DNA from: a virus
Virus record (IMG/VR): IMGVR_UViG_3300050505_000217
DNA length: 15,451 nt
Reading direction: 5' to 3' (one strand)
Position numbers and translations under genes: made by a program. Under the pieces are notes generated by a model. It did not search any database, was not told where the DNA came from, and saw only the letters and a program-made list of their open reading frames with translations. How positions within the stretch are numbered: position 1 is the stretch's first letter; each line of letters begins with the position of its first letter. This document shows positions 5,442 through 15,451 of the stretch, piece by piece.

Positions 5442-6026
5442 ATGATCGCCGCCCTGTACGTCGAGGCCGGCGGGGTCTACACCGACGTCGCCGACGTCGA
5501 CACCTGGGACATCGCCCGTGACGCCCGCACCTATCCCGGGCCGTGGCCGGTGGTCGCCCACCCGCCGTGCAACCGGTGGTGCCAACTGGCCCCGGTCAAC
5601 GCCGCCCGCTACGGCACACCGATCGGCGACGACGACGGCACGTTCGCCGCCGCCCTGGCCGCGGTGCGCCGATGGGGCGGGGTGCTCGAGCATCCCGCCT
5701 ACTCGTTGGCGTGGCCCCGGTTCGACCTGCCCACACCCCGCCGCGGCGCCTGGACCCAGTCCCTCACCGACCCCGGGATGGTCACCGAGATATCCCAGGT
5801 GATGTACGGACACCGGGCCCGCAAACGGACCTGGCTGTACGCCGTCGGGGTCCAACCCCTCGACCTGCAATGGGGCGAACGACCCGGCCGTGTCGTCGTC
5901 GGCGCCGGCGTCCACACCGGTGAGTGCGCCGGACGGGGCCGCGCCGAACGTGACGTCCGCACCCCGCCCGCGTTCCGCGACGTTCTCGTCACGCTGGCCC
6001 GATCGGCGGTCACCGTTGGCCGATGA
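5442..6026 (+). CDS. Truncated DNA cytosine-5 methyltransferase-like protein (catalytic-core motifs only)
   Basis: ATG 5442. VVAHPPCNRW (Cys43), GVLEHPAYS (Glu83), MYGHRARKRTWLY and the C-terminal RTPPAFRDVLVTLA occur in the order and spacing of C5-MTase motifs IV, VI, VIII and X. At 194 aa there is no room for a normal AdoMet subdomain or target-recognition domain. Confidence 0.5.
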   Translation: MIAALYVEAGGVYTDVADVDTWDIARDARTYPGPWPVVAHPPCNRWCQLAPVNAARYGTPIGDDDGTFAAALAAVRRWGGVLEHPAYSLAWPRFDLPTPRRGAWTQSLTDPGMVTEISQVMYGHRARKRTWLYAVGVQPLDLQWGERPGRVVVGAGVHTGECAGRGRAERDVRTPPAFRDVLVTLARSAVTVGR

Positions 6027-6138
6027 ACCGCTGTTCGTCTGCCCGCGGTGTGGAACCGCGCTGCACCAGATCGCGCCGACACGGTGGTACTGCCATGCCT
6101 GTCGAATGGCCGTGCATCCGAAGACCGGCGATGAGTGA
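6016..6138 (+). CDS. Mini zinc-ribbon protein (40 aa), paralogue of the N-terminus of the next gene
   Basis: I propose TTG 6016 as the start. The product (L/M)ADEPLFVCPRCGTALHQIAPTRWYCHACRMAV aligns residue for residue with MSDQPLFACAECGQIL of 6131..7006. GC3 is about 30/40 in this frame. The competing ATG 6023 frame gives Arg-rich junk. Confidence 0.55.
   Translation: MADEPLFVCPRCGTALHQIAPTRWYCHACRMAVHPKTGDE
6022..6042 (+). repeat. 21-nt direct repeat, copy 1 (19/21 identical to 6137..6157)
   Basis: Compare gatgaaccgctgttcgtctgc with gatcaaccgctgttcgcctgc, 115 nt apart. They encode the D(E/Q)PLF(V/A)C start of the two zinc ribbons. Confidence 0.85.
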
Positions 6139-7006
6139 TCAACCGCTGTTCGCCTGCGCCGAGTGCGGCCAGATTCTCCCGCTCGACCAATGGGCGAGAC
6201 ATCACTGTCTCGCGCCAGCGGTCAAGAATCCGGCACTTGCCCGGTTCTACCTCGGTACCCACATGCCCGCCTGGCTGACCCGTGTCGACGTTCCCCTGTT
6301 CGTCTCCCAACGCCGCCTCGCCAAACGTCGCACATACCGACCGGCCCACACCCGATGGGCGCTCGACTCGGGGGCGTTCACCGAGATCTACCTCTACCGC
6401 GAGTACGCCACCACACCGGCCGCCTACATCGCCGCCGCCCGCCGCTACCGCGACGAGATCGGCCGGCTCGACTGGATCGCCCCACAGGACCACATGTGTG
6501 AGCCGTTCGTCCTCGCCACTTCCCGCATCGCCCGCACCGTCCCGACCGCCCAACGCCACACCGTCGACAACTACCTGACGTTGCGGACCCTCGCCCCCGA
6601 TCTGCCGATCATCCCCGTGTTGCAAGGCCAGACGCTGGCCGACTACTGGCGGTGCGCCGACATGTACGAACGTGCCGGCGTCGACCTGCACCGTGAACGT
6701 CTCGTCGGCCTGGGGTCGGTGTGCCGACGTGAGGCAACCGACGAGATCGCGCAGCTCGTCGCCAACCTGTCAGCCGACGGCCTGCGACTGCACGGGTTCG
6801 GGGTGAAGACAGACGGGCTGCGCCGTTACGGTTGGTGTCTCACGTCGGCTGATTCGATGGCGTGGTCGTATCGGGGTCGCAACATCCACCCGTGTCCACA
6901 CACCGGGGTGAAGTCCTGTGCCAACTGTCTGCCCCACGCCCTGGCCTGGCGGGAGCGGGCGATCGCCGCCGTGCCTCGCCCCGTACAACTGGGACTAGCG
7001 GTGTGA
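6131..7006 (+). CDS. dpdA: DpdA-like DNA (7-deazaguanine) transglycosylase, TGT superfamily, with an N-terminal zinc ribbon
   Basis: ATG 6131 overlaps the upstream ORF by 8 nt. Motifs in order: FYLGTHMPAWL, PLFVS, ALDSGAF (Asp79), APQDHMCEP, IPVLQG, GLGSVCRR, LHGFGVK, SADSMAWS (Asp241), and a C-terminal Cys/His cluster HPCPHTGVKSCANCLPH. This matches my memory of the DpdA family and the TGT catalytic landmarks. Not searched. Confidence 0.7.
   Translation: MSDQPLFACAECGQILPLDQWARHHCLAPAVKNPALARFYLGTHMPAWLTRVDVPLFVSQRRLAKRRTYRPAHTRWALDSGAFTEIYLYREYATTPAAYIAAARRYRDEIGRLDWIAPQDHMCEPFVLATSRIARTVPTAQRHTVDNYLTLRTLAPDLPIIPVLQGQTLADYWRCADMYERAGVDLHRERLVGLGSVCRREATDEIAQLVANLSADGLRLHGFGVKTDGLRRYGWCLTSADSMAWSYRGRNIHPCPHTGVKSCANCLPHALAWRERAIAAVPRPVQLGLAV
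6137..6157 (+). repeat. 21-nt direct repeat, copy 2
   Basis: See 6022..6042. Confidence 0.85.
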
Positions 7007-7018
7007 GCTGGGCCGACC

Positions 7019-7393
7019 GTGGCTGACCCTGCCTACCGTGAGCCCGCCTACCTGGCGGCGCTGTCGGTGCTGGCCGGCGGTGAGCATCGGTGTGTGTGGT
7101 GCGGGGCCCGGGCCTCGACACCCGATCACGTCCCGGCGTTGGCCGATCACCGCCACGTCGCCGGGTCGGGGTGCTGTCGGTTGGCGCCGGCGTGTCGTCG
7201 TTGCCAGTCGGCGGGAGGGGCGCAGGTGTCGAACCGTCGTCGTCGCGCGTCGTCGCGGTCGCGTCTCGCTCCGGGCTCGAGCGTTCTTGGATCGGGGGGA
7301 GCGGTTGGACGCCGCCGGCGTCCGGGTTCTCTCTCCCGCCGGGCCGGGACGCCCCGCGTAACTACGGTTCGGCCCGATGCGGACCGATCGTGA
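7019..7393 (+). CDS. HNH endonuclease (packaging-associated type)
   Basis: GTG start. CVWCG...TPDHVP...RLAPACRRCQSAGG is a CxxC / DH / CxxC HNH zinc-finger layout. It lies directly upstream of the terminase genes. The C-terminal ~50 residues are Arg/Ser/Gly-rich with weaker codon bias. Confidence 0.7.
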   Translation: MADPAYREPAYLAALSVLAGGEHRCVWCGARASTPDHVPALADHRHVAGSGCCRLAPACRRCQSAGGAQVSNRRRRASSRSRLAPGSSVLGSGGAVGRRRRPGSLSRRAGTPRVTTVRPDADRS

Positions 7394-7794: not shown

Positions 7795-9187
7795 ACCGCC
7801 GTACCCGTGGCAGTGGGATGTCGCCGACGTCGCCGGCGAGATCAACGACGACGGCACCGGGTTCCGTTACGGCGTGGTGGTGCTGTCGGTGCCGCGCCGC
7901 GCCGGCAAGACGACCCTGTCGCTCGCCGTCAACCTGGACCATCTCGACATCACGTCGGATCAGCGCGCCTGGTACACCGCGCAACGACGCGAGACCGCGG
8001 CCAAGCTGTTTCGCGACGAGTGGGTGCCGATGCTCGAGCCGTTGTCGCGGCTGTACCGGTTGCGCCGCTCCCAGGGGTCCGAAGGTGTCCACAAACGCCG
8101 CGGTTCGTCCCGCCTGCAGTTGTTCGCCCCGACCGCCGACGCGTTGCACTCGACCAACGCCGACACCGTCACCGTGGACGAGGCGTGGGCGTTCGACGTG
8201 GAATCCGGCGAAGCGTTGGAAGGTGGCATCCGCCCCGCCCAGTTGACCCGGCCGTGGCGTCAGACCTGGATCGTGTCGGCCGGCGGCACCGTCGAGTCGA
8301 CGTGGTGGGACCGTTGGCTGACCGCCGGCGCGTCCGGACTGCCCGGCGTCGCCATGTTCGACTACGGCGCCGACCCGACCGACCCGGGCTACGACCCGGC
8401 CGACCCGGCGGTGTGGGTCGGCGCCCATCCGACCGCCGGGATCGCGTTCGGCCTCGACGTGTTGCACCGGGAATGGGCGATCCGCGAATCGGACGCCGCG
8501 TTTGAACGGGCCTACCTGAACGTGTGGCCCCGCCCGTCGGAGGTGCTGGCGGCCGCCGGGGTGGACCTGGCGTTGTGGTCCGCCGCCGCCCGTCCGTCCG
8601 TCTCGGTGACGTCGGTGCGGGCGGTGGCGTTCGACGTCGCCGGCGACCGCTCGAGCGCCGCGGTCGCCGTGGCCGGCCCCGGCCCCGACGGTGCCACCGT
8701 GGTCGAAGTGATCGACGCCCGCCGCGGTGTCGGCTGGTTGGCCGCCGCCGTGCGCGACGCCCGCCGCGCCCATCCCGGCGCCCGTGTCGTCGCCGATTCG
8801 TTGGTCACCGCCGGGGTCATCGCCGAGCTGCGCCGGGTCCGGGTCGCCGTCGACCCGGTCGGCGCCGGCGACCACGCCCGGGCCTGCGGCGCGTTCTTGG
8901 ACGCCCTCGCCGACGGACGGCTGTCCCACCGCGCCCAGGCCGTGTTGGACGACGCCGTGATCGGCGCCGCCCGCCGACCGTTGGGCGACGCCTGGTTGTG
9001 GTCGCGGGCCCGGTCCGGGGTCGACATCTCGCCGTTGGTGGCGGTGACCCTGGCGGCGTGGTCGGTCGCCGTCGCCGCCCCCCGTGGCCGTGGCGCCGTC
9101 GTCGTCGCCGCTCCCGATCGCCCGGCCCCCAGGTACCCGGCGGGCCGTTTCGGCCGTCCTGGGGCCACCGGGGCGTCGATGCGTTGA
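7661..9187 (+). CDS. Terminase large subunit
   Basis: Features seen are Walker A VPRRAGKTT, a Walker B-like TVTVDEAW, and PYPWQW upstream of the P-loop. The product is 508 aa. GTG 7661 (after GGGGAG 7651-7656) is the only canonical in-frame start upstream of the conserved N-terminal motifs, and it gives a 134-nt overlap with the previous gene. Confidence 0.8.
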   Translation: MTAPAISATTTNWHASPPRFATPRDPERPTTGPSTLAHLTRLRRRPPYPWQWDVADVAGEINDDGTGFRYGVVVLSVPRRAGKTTLSLAVNLDHLDITSDQRAWYTAQRRETAAKLFRDEWVPMLEPLSRLYRLRRSQGSEGVHKRRGSSRLQLFAPTADALHSTNADTVTVDEAWAFDVESGEALEGGIRPAQLTRPWRQTWIVSAGGTVESTWWDRWLTAGASGLPGVAMFDYGADPTDPGYDPADPAVWVGAHPTAGIAFGLDVLHREWAIRESDAAFERAYLNVWPRPSEVLAAAGVDLALWSAAARPSVSVTSVRAVAFDVAGDRSSAAVAVAGPGPDGATVVEVIDARRGVGWLAAAVRDARRAHPGARVVADSLVTAGVIAELRRVRVAVDPVGAGDHARACGAFLDALADGRLSHRAQAVLDDAVIGAARRPLGDAWLWSRARSGVDISPLVAVTLAAWSVAVAAPRGRGAVVVAAPDRPAPRYPAGRFGRPGATGASMR

Positions 9188-9207
9188 CGTCGTTACGTAA
9201 CGACGTC
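9186..9207. repeat. Perfect 22-bp palindrome GACGTCGTTACGTAACGACGTC
   Basis: Verified to be its own reverse complement. It overlaps the last two bases of the TerL stop codon (9185-9187) and sits in a short, relatively AT-rich spacer. Confidence 0.9.
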
Positions 9208-9221
9208 GTACGTCGCGATCG

Positions 9222-9386
9222 ATGGCAACGAAATCTTCCGCCGATCCCGCCGCCGACCTGGCCGCCGGGAAGATCGATGACACCGAGTTTCACCGCCGCA
9301 TCGCCGAAGCCGGCGCCGCCGCGACGACCGCCGAAGCGTTGAACCCCCCCGACGCCGGCACCGGCGCCGCCGCCCCCACCACCTGA
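9222..9386 (+). CDS. Hypothetical small protein (54 aa, Ala-rich)
   Basis: Not in the supplied ORF track (below its length cutoff). Translated by hand: ATG 9222 to TGA 9384-9386 gives MATKSSADPAADLAAGKIDDTEFHRRIAEAGAAATTAEALNPPDAGTGAAAPTT. GC3 is high and it fills the TerL-portal gap. No obvious SD. Confidence 0.4.
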   Translation: MATKSSADPAADLAAGKIDDTEFHRRIAEAGAAATTAEALNPPDAGTGAAAPTT

Positions 9387-9390
9387 CGCG

Positions 9391-10569
9391 ATGGCGCGTC
9401 GGTGGGGGGAGCGGCTGGCCGGTCTGCTCGAGTTCGGCGCCGGCGTCCCCGTCCTGCCGTCGGGGGCGCCGGTGGCCGCCGCCGCGCCGGCGCGCCGTGG
9501 GGTCAACGTGTCCCGCGGGTTCTCGTCGCCGACGGTGCCGTGGGGCCTGGGCCCGCCGTTGGCCCCGGTCGACGTCGCCGACGGATGGGGCCTGGTCGAC
9601 CGTGACGCGGCGATGTCGTTGCCGACGATCCAACGGGGCCGTGACCTGATCGTCTCGGCGGTGTCGGCGTGTCCGTTCACGTTGTGGCGCACCGACCGGA
9701 CCGTGATCCCCCCGACCGACGAACGCATCGGCGACGCCGGATGGTTCGACACGCCCGACCCCGATCAGACCTGTCAGTGGCTGTTGGCGTGGACGGTGGA
9801 CGACCTGTTGTTCTACTCCGACGCCTACTGGCGGGTCACCGCCCGCTACGCCGACACCGGCTACCCGCGGGCGTTCCGCCGGATCGCCCCGGGCTGTCTC
9901 GACGTGCGCGACGGGTTCGTCATGGTCACCGACCCGCTGTACAACGACGGCCGGCCCGAACGTGTCGAGCTCGCCGACGTGATCGAGTTCTGCTCCCCGC
10001 TGGAAGGGCTGTTGAACAACGGCGGGCGGGCCATCGGGATCGCCCTGTCGTTGGACGCCGCCGCCGCCCGGTTCGCCGACAACGAAGTCCCCGCCGGCTA
10101 CCTGCGCCAACGCGAAGGGTCCGAGGATCTGACCACCGCCGAGATGGCCGACGAGACGGCGGCGTGGACGATCGCCCGGCGCACCGGCACCGTCGCCTAC
10201 CTCAACCAGTGGACCGAGTACGTCGAGGCGTCCTACGACCCGTCCCGGATGCAGGTCGTGGAAGGGCGCACCTATCAGGCGCTCGAGCTGTCCCGCCTGG
10301 CGAACATTCCGCCCTATCTGACCGGCGCCCCCGCCGGTACCGGGATGACTTATCTGAACGCCGAACAGGCCAAGGCCGACCTGATCGATTTCGGCGCCGC
10401 CCCGCTGATCACCTGTCTGGAACAGACGTTGTCGGGGCCACGGGTGACACCGCGGGGCCAACACGTCCGCTTGGACCTGAACGTGTGGCTGCGCAACCCG
10501 TTCAACCCGCCGACCCCGCTGTCCCAGCCCGAGGTGCCCGCCCCGCCCGTCACCGAGGTGCCGTCGTGA
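9391..10569 (+). CDS. Portal protein
   Basis: The 392-aa ORF lies between the terminase and the protease/capsid gene. Size and sequence style fit HK97-family portals. ATG 9391 lies 4 nt after the preceding small ORF. Confidence 0.8.
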   Translation: MARRWGERLAGLLEFGAGVPVLPSGAPVAAAAPARRGVNVSRGFSSPTVPWGLGPPLAPVDVADGWGLVDRDAAMSLPTIQRGRDLIVSAVSACPFTLWRTDRTVIPPTDERIGDAGWFDTPDPDQTCQWLLAWTVDDLLFYSDAYWRVTARYADTGYPRAFRRIAPGCLDVRDGFVMVTDPLYNDGRPERVELADVIEFCSPLEGLLNNGGRAIGIALSLDAAAARFADNEVPAGYLRQREGSEDLTTAEMADETAAWTIARRTGTVAYLNQWTEYVEASYDPSRMQVVEGRTYQALELSRLANIPPYLTGAPAGTGMTYLNAEQAKADLIDFGAAPLITCLEQTLSGPRVTPRGQHVRLDLNVWLRNPFNPPTPLSQPEVPAPPVTEVPS

Positions 10570-13947: not shown

Positions 13948-15435
13948 ATGGCCGAGAAAGTCCAAGTCGACGTCGAGCTGACCGGCGCCGCCAAGACGGT
14001 CGGCGGGCTCGAGGACGTCGCCGACGCCGCCGCGCACGTCGAGGACCACGACGCCGTCACCGTCACCGCCGACGCCGACGTCCACGACGCCCGCCGCGGC
14101 CTGGACGACGTCGCCACCGCCGCCGACGAGCTCGACGGCACCGACGCCACGATCACCGCCCGGTTGACCAACCAGACGTCGGGGCCGCTGGCGGACATCT
14201 TCGGTGATCTCGACAAGCTGTCGACCCGGGCGAAAGAGGCCGGCGACAAACTGGACGCCGTCGGCTCACCCGACCGTGGCAAGTTCTCGGCCAAGGGTCA
14301 GGCGATCTCGGATCTGACCGGCCCACTCGGCGACGTGTCGGGGACGGCGTCGGACGTCGCCGGCGTGTTCGACGGACTCGGCGACACCCTCGAGGGACTC
14401 GGCGCCAAGATGGGGGTGTCGACCGAGGCGATCATGGGGTCGTTGGGGGCGATCGGGTTCGGGGTGACCGCGGCGATCACGGCGTGGTCCTATTTCCGTC
14501 AGAAACAGGACGAGGCCCAGGCCGCACTCAAGAAGACGGCCGACGAGCAACGCAAACTGGCCGACCTGTTGAGAGAGGCCAAGTACGGCGAGGCCGCCCA
14601 GTCACTGGTCGACACGTACGGCAAGGTGTACGACGCCGCCCACAAGGCCGGGATCGGTGTCGAGGAAGTCACCAACTTTCTCGCCGGCTACACCGACGAC
14701 CTGCCCACCGCGACGGCCCACATTCAGGACATCGCCAAGGCCCAACACGACCACGGCGAGACGACCGCCACCCTGATCGCCGCCTATTCCCAGTTGATCG
14801 ACCCGGTGCTGTCGGCCCGTGACGGGATCGACAAGGCGAACGACTCGATCAAGACACAGGACGATCGGACCAAGGACGCCACCGAGGCGCTGCAGGCCCA
14901 TGCCACGTCGGCGGGGGTGGCGGCCGACGCCCAGCAACGGTTGAAAGACAAGACCGAACGTCTCGGCACGGCGTTCGACACCCTGTCCGGGAAGGTCGAT
15001 CTCGACGCCGAGTTCCACCAGTTCGAGGCGTCGATGGATACGGCGATGACGAACACGCAGAACGGCATCGCGATCACCGTCGCCGACGTCGACGGATACA
15101 AACGTGACCTGGTCGACCTGGCCCGCACCGCCGGCGCCAACCCGGTCGACGTCCAGTCGACGTTGAAGAAGTTGGACGCCGGCGACTACGCCGCGGTCAA
15201 GTCCGACGCCGAGCGTTACTACCAGAACAACCCGGTGGCGGTCGCCGCCCGGTTGCAGTTGGCCCGCAACATCGCCGTGCCGCCCGGTGTCATCGGCGCC
15301 TCACTCGGCGCCACCGCCGCGCCGGTGGTCAACGTGACCCAGTACCTGCCCCGCGGGTGGCGTGGTGACGCCCTGGGCGACGCCCGCCGCCAGGCCCGTC
15401 GCGCCGGCGGCCTGTATCAACGGTTCTCCCGATGA
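13948..15435 (+). CDS. Tape measure protein
   Basis: The 495-aa product is long, helical and Ala/Asp/Lys-rich, with a central hydrophobic segment (GSLGAIGFGVTAAITAW). It lies between the tail-shaft genes and the minor tail genes. Its stop overlaps the minor tail ATG (15432-15435, the same bases as 108-111). Confidence 0.75.
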   Translation: MAEKVQVDVELTGAAKTVGGLEDVADAAAHVEDHDAVTVTADADVHDARRGLDDVATAADELDGTDATITARLTNQTSGPLADIFGDLDKLSTRAKEAGDKLDAVGSPDRGKFSAKGQAISDLTGPLGDVSGTASDVAGVFDGLGDTLEGLGAKMGVSTEAIMGSLGAIGFGVTAAITAWSYFRQKQDEAQAALKKTADEQRKLADLLREAKYGEAAQSLVDTYGKVYDAAHKAGIGVEEVTNFLAGYTDDLPTATAHIQDIAKAQHDHGETTATLIAAYSQLIDPVLSARDGIDKANDSIKTQDDRTKDATEALQAHATSAGVAADAQQRLKDKTERLGTAFDTLSGKVDLDAEFHQFEASMDTAMTNTQNGIAITVADVDGYKRDLVDLARTAGANPVDVQSTLKKLDAGDYAAVKSDAERYYQNNPVAVAARLQLARNIAVPPGVIGASLGATAAPVVNVTQYLPRGWRGDALGDARRQARRAGGLYQRFSR

Positions 15436-15451
15436 CCCGCACCGGCGACGT
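15325..15451. repeat. Terminal exact direct repeat, copy B (same as 1..127)
   Basis: See copy A. It contains the tape measure stop and the first 20 nt of the minor tail gene (15432..15451, the same bases as 108..127). Confidence 0.95.

Follow-up and report, generated by a model that had tools for sequence, protein, structure and literature searches.

Very short phage proteins related in predicted fold to DNA cytosine-5 methyltransferases: a 194-residue member from a 15 kb phage genome

Canonical DNA cytosine-5 (C5) methyltransferases (PF00145, among them M.HhaI, M.HaeIII and DNMT3A/B) are proteins of at least about 320 amino acids (aa). A full-length phage homologue, the DNA cytosine C5-carboxymethyltransferase CmoX (PDB 8YF3), has set a precedent for an altered cofactor within this fold; it has an S-P-P-C motif. 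Unlike the protein described here, CmoX has a 372-residue chain that fits M.HhaI at 1.0 A upon superposition, retains motifs I-III along with a modified motif X (R350), and depends on a phage CmoA (PMC12783734). At the other end of the size range, Gp8 of Rhodobacter phage Ebor, a 163-aa protein from a 6.6 kb single-stranded DNA (ssDNA) phage, was annotated as a "putative DNA methylase" on the strength of an HHpred match with an E value of 2.3e-8 to UniProt Q67472, and the authors could not attribute the methylation that they observed to Gp8 (PMC11980548). Here we analyze a gene of the virus record IMGVR_UViG_3300050505_000217, a stretch of 15,451 nucleotides that we call the window; the gene is the open reading frame (ORF) 5442..6026 on the plus strand and encodes 194 aa. 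A preliminary description made from the letters of the DNA had taken its product for a minimal C5-methyltransferase-like core coupled to a DpdA-like gene. Ebor Gp8 is 35% identical to the window protein over 96% of the latter, and both belong to PHROG 12600; Gp8 is the only member with a proposed function that we found in the literature, where we found no characterization of the family. The nearest detectable relatives are the proteins of PHROG 757 and short phage methyltransferases of about 220-250 aa, which are also carried by phages and whose recognition region is reduced. The sizes form a series, from the canonical enzymes through PHROG 757 (about 247 positions) and PHROG 12600 (about 195 aa) down to the 163 aa of Ebor Gp8.

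Two AlphaFold2 models of the window protein, built from different alignments, reached predicted local distance difference test (pLDDT) scores of 90.3 and 92.4 and predicted template-modelling scores of 0.88-0.89. Strands were predicted at residues 2-5, 19-22, 37-39, 80-85, 113-118 and 129-135 and helices at residues 50-57, 67-78 and 176-187. These predicted elements are co-linear with those of the C5-methyltransferase core, namely strand 1, a strand from the 2/3 pair, strand 4 and the PC loop after it, helix D, then strand 5 with its Glu, the 6-7 hairpin with a Y-G turn and the final helix. The Foldseek comparison that the preliminary description had proposed as a check gave weak matches of one kind, in that all of the top 50 PDB matches were DNA cytosine-5 methyltransferases with both models (DNMT3A/B, DNMT1, ZMET2, MET1, DIM2 and DNMT5). 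In BFVD the best Foldseek matches were short phage proteins whose annotation is that of a SAM-dependent or a cytosine methyltransferase (E 2e-4 to 4e-3), with template-modelling (TM) scores of 0.46-0.58 for those with E 2e-4 to 4e-4; they include a 249-aa SAM-dependent methyltransferase (A0A6J5NZU5; E 4e-4) and a 225-aa cytosine methylase of Vibrio phage Vc1.

An intermediate family points the same way. The 247-position profile of PHROG 757, annotated "DNA methyltransferase", was matched by 26 of 65 diverse members of the window protein's family (best E 2e-5), and M.HhaI itself matches this profile at E 4.9e-5, with its residues 6-120 on positions 9-127. Residues 18-142 of one family member (P0217) fall on positions 53-170 and residues 23-69 of another (P0199) on positions 63-103, and the part of the profile common to M.HhaI and to the short proteins holds the PC and Glu motifs. 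PHROG 757 proteins are about 50 residues longer than the members of the family, in which only 17 residues take the place of some 52 profile positions (motif I, helix A and strand 2). The window protein itself did not match PHROG 757 at an E value of 1 or better, and no members of PHROG 757 were found in our phage collection (tblastn, E up to 10). The resemblance to C5-methyltransferases rests on predicted structure and on this intermediate family, and not on direct sequence statistics. We consider a relationship in fold and chemistry probable and accept homology with the C5-methyltransferase catalytic core, without filing the family as a member of PF00145.

Conservation was analyzed in an alignment of 135 representatives of the family with a median pairwise identity of 45%. 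H40, C43, D64, G80, E83, P85 and A90 are invariant (135/135), whereas G11, Y13, D27, A28, Y31, P41, P42, W46, F68, H84, P99, W104, Q119, G123, K128 and T130 are kept in at least 95% of the sequences, with P41, P42 (133/135), H84, Q119, G123, K128 and T130 at 97% or above. The family signature reads [AS]-A-L-[FY]-V-x3-G-x-Y-x5-[VI]-[DE]-x-W-x3-R-D-A-R-x-Y-x-G-P-x-P-V-[VI]-A-H-P-P-C, followed by G-x-D-x-G-x-F ... G-G-V-L-E-H-P ... Q-x-x-Y-G-H-x-A-x-K-x-T-W-L ... T-P-x-x-F. The suggested correspondence of these segments with the canonical motifs, with their coordinates, is given in Table 1.

Table 1. Segments of the window protein and their suggested counterparts in C5-methyltransferases
Feature	Position	Strand	Basis
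Strand 1 (I-A-A-L-[YF]-V) and loop with G11 and Y13; putative remnant of motif I (L-F-x-G-x-G-G), not followed by helix A	5445..5480, residues 2-13	+	AlphaFold strand 2-5; A4, L5, G11 and Y13 conserved; motif inferred
Second strand V-D-x-W, then R26-D27-A28-R29; candidate ribose/adenine-binding acids of motif II and/or III	5496..5528, residues 19-29	+	Model and conservation; role inferred
H40-P41-P42-C43; motif IV equivalent, putative Cys nucleophile	5559..5570	+	H40 and C43 invariant; P41/P42 at least 98%
G62-x-D64-x-G66-x-F68 and helix 67-78; candidate for the D-x-R-G-x-L-F stretch and the motif V helix, which come after the catalytic loop	5625..5675	+	D64 invariant; G62, G66 and F68 at least 94%; tentatively assigned by order and spacing
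G79-G80-V-L-E83-H84-P85; predicted strand 5 ending in the invariant Glu, motif VI (ENV replaced by EHP)	5676..5696	+	Model and conservation
Q119-x-x-Y122-G123-H124-x-A-x-K128-x-T130-W-L-Y; predicted turn of the strand 6-7 hairpin, motif VIII equivalent	5796..5840	+	Predicted strands 113-118 and 129-135; conservation
Short segment in place of the target-recognition domain	5847..5960, residues 136-173	+	Variable length; low model confidence from about 150
T174-P175-x-x-F178-R-D-x-L182 ... A186; predicted C-terminal helix, motif IX-like	5961..6002	+	Helix 176-187; conservation; hhalign pairs T-P..F with the LTPRE region

The peptides quoted in the preliminary description are all present, namely VVAHPPCNRW at residues 37-46 (with the Cys43 codon, tgc, at 5568-5570), GGVLEHPAYS at 79-88 (Glu83), EAGG at 8-11, MYGHRARKRTWLY at 121-133 (Arg127/129) and RTPPAFRDVLVTLA at 173-186. 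Its spacings are right (40 residues from Cys43 to Glu83, 44 from Glu83 to Arg127 and 33 from G10 to C43), as are the M.HhaI residues that it gave (C81, E119, R163 and R165). Our M.HhaI comparison sequence is identical to PDB 10mh_A, and residues F18, E40, W41, D60, P80, C81, E119, Q161, R163, R165 and N304 were checked in it. Against M.HhaI the distance from Cys to Glu is 40 residues versus 38, and that from Glu83 to G123 is 40 versus 39 (E119 to G158). The equivalents of motif IV (PPC) and motif VI (Glu) thus stand at canonical spacing as described; the proposed arginines of motif VIII do not hold up, R127 being present in 75 and R129 in 29 of the 135 representatives. Where canonical enzymes have Q-x-R-x-R the family has x-x-K-x-T, with K128 as the conserved basic residue. 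The C-terminal segment had been likened to motif X; the conserved T-P-x-x-F, which follows a consensus R-L-S-K-R-E, is closer to motif IX (R-x-L-T-x-R-E ... F-P-D-x-F). After this helix 8-20 residues follow and the protein ends, and the family alignment contains no conserved G-N motif of the motif X type, GN(A/S)V. In sum the protein shares with PF00145 enzymes the P-C motif, the Glu that ends strand 5, the Y-G turn, the motif IX-like helix, a basic character and occurrence in phages, and differs from them by the lack of helix A, of the F-x-G-x-G form of motif I, of a target-recognition domain and of motif X.

The reduction is strongest in the recognition and cofactor-binding parts. As had been noted, there is no space for a normal target-recognition domain: 38 residues (136-173) replace a domain of about 90, with pLDDT values of 55-66 at 150-170 and many gaps in the family at 155-163, and at 194 aa the whole protein is far smaller than canonical enzymes. 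The view that the S-adenosylmethionine (AdoMet) subdomain is missing needs to be divided. Helix A and the helices and one strand of the motif II-III region are gone, this region being about 17 residues shorter than in canonical enzymes with only 23 residues from D20 to C43, but strand 1, G11-x-Y13, D/E20-W22 and R26-D27-A28-R29 are strongly conserved. Likewise, in the EAGG that had been taken for a weak motif I, G11 is conserved and the remainder is not; the first Gly of motif I is replaced by E, D or Q, an aromatic residue at position 6 is kept, and neither model has a helix between residues 6 and 18. The first 35 residues rank among the best conserved of the protein, position 20 is acidic in 124 of the 135 representatives and W22 is found in 126, an acid at a strand end followed by Trp that recalls E40-W41 of M.HhaI. 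The alignment of P0199 with PHROG 757 places the segment of residues 19-29 just before the PC motif. Judged from these sequence patterns, D/E20 (with W22 after it) and D27 could replace motifs II and III in function, and a reduced AdoMet pocket formed by G11/Y13, D/E20/W22 and D27 is plausible. A further conserved segment, A-x-S-x-A-W-x-x-F-G-L-P-x-P at residues 86-99 (5697-5738), cannot be matched clearly to any canonical motif; there is a weak similarity to motif VIII (A-x-D-Y-G-V-P-Q) and to the S-x-A-Y-K-x-F-G-N that precedes motif X (hmmsearch E 0.1-1), resemblances that we treat as chance, and the segment could instead be a rearranged cofactor-binding element.

On these grounds we favour, at roughly even chances, the reading that the gene encodes a complete, stand-alone and strongly reduced enzyme of the C5-methyltransferase fold, carried as a phage accessory gene, which transfers a methyl group from AdoMet and lets the phage escape restriction. 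In the proposed mechanism the basic protein (isoelectric point about 9) would bind DNA and flip out a cytosine; Cys43 would attack C6 while Glu83 acts at N3/N4, protonating N3, and K128 would act in place of the Arg that binds O2. C5 would then receive a one-carbon group, most likely a methyl group donated by AdoMet held in the minimal pocket of G11/Y13, D20/W22 and D27, and beta-elimination would free the enzyme. Sequence specificity would be very short or relaxed because there is no recognition domain, and the modified phage DNA would escape host restriction.

Several observations weigh against this reading. The PDB matches of Foldseek are weak (best E 8.6e-3, hence none below 1e-3, probability up to 0.94 and TM only 0.35-0.43). 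PF00145 was not matched by any of the 65 diverse family members even at E up to 10. When the family profile (135 sequences) was compared by hhalign with canonical phage C5-methyltransferases (an alignment of 75 sequences from IMG/VR loci together with M.HhaI), using the whole alignment, the alignment with the recognition domain removed or sub-regions, and also with DNMT3A alone, the result was not significant (P 0.2-0.35) and was inconsistent beyond the PC motif, H-P-P-C being the sole segment aligned to PCQ/PCN. Elements that contribute to AdoMet binding in canonical enzymes are missing (helix A, those of motifs II-III, and motif X), so that cofactor binding by the family is putative. Finally, in Ebor virion DNA 1.58% of cytosine calls were 5-methylcytosine (5mC) in any context, a level that does not point to heavy C5 methylation, in an assay that was not designed as a test of this point (PMC11980548).

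Other pairings and other folds were considered and rejected. The pairing by hhalign of the G-D-D-G-x-F helix with motif VII, and that by hmmsearch of S-x-A-W-x-x-F-G-L-P with S-x-A-Y-K-x-F-G-N before motif X, are ascribed to chance, as either would delete strand 5 or clash with the predicted strand order. PDB sequence searches with the single protein and with two profiles gave nothing significant. A 20-residue match at PPC to a thymidylate synthase had an E value of 2.1, and no structure of the thymidylate synthase/dCMP hydroxymethylase kind is found among the Foldseek matches; the other non-significant PDB sequence match was rotavirus VP8* (E 1.4). A zinc site of the cytidine-deaminase type (H-x-E ... 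P-C-x-x-C) was dismissed on the reversed order of the motifs and on C47, which is found in only 34 of the 135 representatives.

The absence of helix A, of motifs II-III as such and of motif X also bears on a rival explanation, in which the fold and the Cys/Glu chemistry are retained in something other than a simple AdoMet-dependent DNA methyltransferase: the protein could use another electrophile or cofactor, carry out cofactor-free chemistry on the activated cytosine, such as deamination or aldehyde addition, or act on RNA or free nucleotides. H40, H84 and H124, invariant or nearly so, flank the catalytic motifs and have no canonical counterpart, CmoX documents a phage C5-methyltransferase homologue with an altered cofactor, carboxy-SAM (PMC12783734), and the low 5mC calls in Ebor DNA are in line with such a change (PMC11980548). 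One member of the family, P0242 (513 aa), carries a C-terminal NUDIX domain (E 5.8e-13), although this fusion is a single case and maybe a gene-calling artefact. On the other side stand the strand-end acid followed by Trp, a classical signature of AdoMet ribose/adenine binding, and the lack of a cofactor-synthesis gene such as CmoA or of any other conserved partner; microviruses of 4.8-6.6 kb carry the gene alone, so that the cofactor must be a ubiquitous host metabolite. We regard altered chemistry of this kind as unlikely, and as the main rival.

So small a protein might also be no enzyme at all. Many small phage proteins are anti-defence binders, and a fold that has lost its recognition domain and a large part of its cofactor pocket could serve for binding alone, to DNA, to a cofactor or to a host protein, as a non-catalytic decoy comparable to DNMT3L or as an inhibitor of host defence. 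Inactive homologues such as DNMT3L have lost catalytic residues, however, whereas Cys43, Glu83, H40, D64 and P85 are invariant throughout the 135 representatives, a pattern typical of active enzymes. We therefore find a binder or decoy improbable and keep to the reading of an active, reduced enzyme.

The family is large and its members are complete. The window protein matches PHROG 12600 ("unknown function") end to end at E 1.7e-51 and has no match among Pfam (E up to 1), NCBIfam or PADLOC models. A search of 5.8 billion proteins returned at least 7,998 homologous clusters at 90% identity, of which the best 120 homologues have 187-251 aa (median 197), and an exhaustive hidden Markov model search of 1.84 billion representatives at 50% identity returned 2,259 proteins with E up to 1e-3 and 417 with E up to 1e-30. 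Nearly all have lengths of 185-230 aa, and the median isoelectric point of the family is 9.1. DNA as rich in G+C as the window (72%) yields many spurious ORFs, and a chance ORF or a pseudogene truncated at its 5' or 3' end from a full-length methyltransferase, the latter raised in the preliminary description, had to be considered. Thousands of homologues with the same start, end and length refute the truncation, and together with strong conservation over the whole length and a compact, confident AlphaFold model they leave either origin a negligible probability.

Among isolated phages the family is rare (14 of 50,697 records) and yet found in very different virus types, including Mu-like phages. 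The carriers comprise the Pseudomonas phages Persinger, Doze, Frizzy and Meltemi, the Caulobacter phages Jess A and RapA, Ralstonia phage PQ43W, Xanthomonas phage fSU1 and three microviruses of 4.8-6.6 kb including Rhodobacter phage Ebor. GTDB genomes yielded 223 loci, with prophages in hosts of many phyla (Alphaproteobacteria, Myxococcota, Planctomycetota, Acidobacteriota, Actinomycetota and others). Two copies of the gene lie about 63 kb apart on one contig of Rhodoplanes elegans (NZ_NHSK01000074.1; L243 and L244), and Rhodoplanes serenus has two on separate contigs (L195 and L200), which suggests several related prophages or gene-transfer-agent-like elements in each genome. A few members are longer. 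One is the NUDIX-bearing P0242. In a second, P0256 (364 aa), which contains HNH_3 and AP2 domains, the family profile matches two stretches that lie apart, a sequence layout that suggests insertion of a homing endonuclease, and a third, P0139 (472 aa), has an unexplained N-terminal extension of 200 aa; these three may be real fusions or gene-calling artefacts.

To see in what company the gene occurs we used 164 loci with a homologue and 6 kb flanks (80 from IMG/VR, 80 from GTDB and four others). In the window the gene at 6131-7006 (+) encodes DpdA, the enzyme of 7-deazaguanine insertion (PF23859, E 5e-80), whose closest relatives are found in about 400 mycobacteriophages at about 53% identity. 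The coupling of the two genes put forward in the preliminary description did not withstand the comparison: a DpdA homologue was found by tblastn within 6 kb in one of the 164 loci and in none of the six loci whose proteins are 63-72% identical to the window protein. These six are mostly phage contigs of 15-17 kb in which the gene lies near terminase or portal genes. Since DpdA is absent from the close relatives examined, it seems to have been inserted recently, along with the HNH gene at 7019-7393. The 15 kb genome of the window holds no genes for preQ0 synthesis, so that the phage must take the 7-deazaguanine precursor from its host. The adjacency would then be incidental, with two independent modification genes acting separately on C and G.

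The most frequent neighbours in the 164 loci were genes for N4/N6 DNA methyltransferases (15 loci), integrase (11), DnaB (10) and RusA (9), followed by helicase, single-stranded DNA-binding protein and VRR-NUC; the first 84 loci also held Dam-like and MT-A70-like methyltransferases. A terminase gene was nearby in 11 loci, as found with a limited query set. The family sits in replication or packaging regions of phages, often beside amino-methyltransferase genes. Clustering of the neighbours revealed no conserved partner, no neighbour family being present in more than 15 of the 164 loci. This pattern is that of a self-sufficient accessory DNA-modification gene and not of a subunit.

A subunit that needs a partner for its cofactor or recognition half, as in the split enzymes M.AquI and M.EcoHK31I, had nevertheless been suggested by the window itself, where the TGA stop of the gene overlaps an ATG at 6023 and the ORF at 6016-6138 and the DpdA gene follow in tight, overlapping succession; the small zinc-ribbon ORF or DpdA would be the candidates. 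DpdA is too rarely nearby, as described above, the lengths within the family are uniform, and the microviruses offer no candidate partner, all of which disfavours this option; we hold it for very improbable. The protein may homodimerize. The small ORF (plus strand, TTG start, LADEPLFVCPRCGTALHQIAPTRWYCHACRMAVHPKTGDE) encodes 40 aa with a zinc-ribbon pattern, CPRC...CHAC, lies between the two genes and overlaps both; it has no PHROG or PADLOC match. Its beginning, PLFVCPRCG, echoes the N-terminus of DpdA, PLFACAECG (6131 start), as if it had arisen by duplication of the N-terminal module of DpdA.

Some individual loci deserve mention. The gene lies between terminase and portal genes in one (L251 1967-2551) and between lysin and terminase genes in another (L247 5255-5857), and in Pseudomonas phage Doze (L248 4995-5591) it is directly upstream of the gene that precedes a Mup29-like (portal-type) gene; that intervening gene is annotated as hypothetical and is taken here for the large terminase. 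The adjacency to packaging genes hints at late expression or at a favoured insertion site at the genome end. In a further locus (L010) a canonical C5-methyltransferase gene at 8878-10192 lies about 2.3 kb downstream of the homologue; it appears split over two frames, one with motifs I-VIII and the other with motifs IX-X, by a frameshift or an assembly error.

The gene in the window starts with ATG, with a GGGG run 4-7 nucleotides upstream. Bases 1-127 of the window are identical to bases 15325-15451, so that the window represents a circular assembly, a complete genome of about 15,324 bp and 71.9% G+C. It contains tail, lysin, replication, terminase, portal, capsid and tape-measure genes and is among the smallest genomes of tailed phages. 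No nucleotide match to it was found in the 50,697 phage records.

The family is new to Pfam and NCBIfam and "unknown" in PHROGs; a guess at a methylase had already been published for Ebor Gp8, and what is described here is an extreme short variant of the C5-methyltransferase type. For the window, the suggested functional coupling to DpdA is removed. More tentatively, and with the smaller chance of proving right, we propose that PHROG 12600 as a whole (163-210 aa) is a family of self-sufficient, active cytosine-C5-modifying enzymes, by far the smallest of the DNA methyltransferase type known, able to act in the absence of a target-recognition domain, helix A and motif X, and therefore with a new mode of cofactor binding or a different cofactor and a nearly sequence-independent or dinucleotide specificity, which disguise the DNA even of ssDNA microviruses of 5-6 kb and tailed phages of 15 kb. 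If active, at roughly 60% of the size of the smallest characterized C5-methyltransferases, such proteins would define how little is needed to flip a base and transfer a group to C5, and which of the canonical motifs an enzyme can do without; they would also provide a scaffold of very small size for epigenome-editing fusions or for methylation footprinting. Should they have no methyltransferase activity, their invariant set of Cys, Glu and His would indicate that a known fold has taken up a new chemistry. Thousands of clusters from viromes of soil and water, and from prophages in many phyla, make the gene an abundant one; even the smallest phage genomes known retain it, which implies that it is of great benefit to them, presumably through the evasion of restriction.

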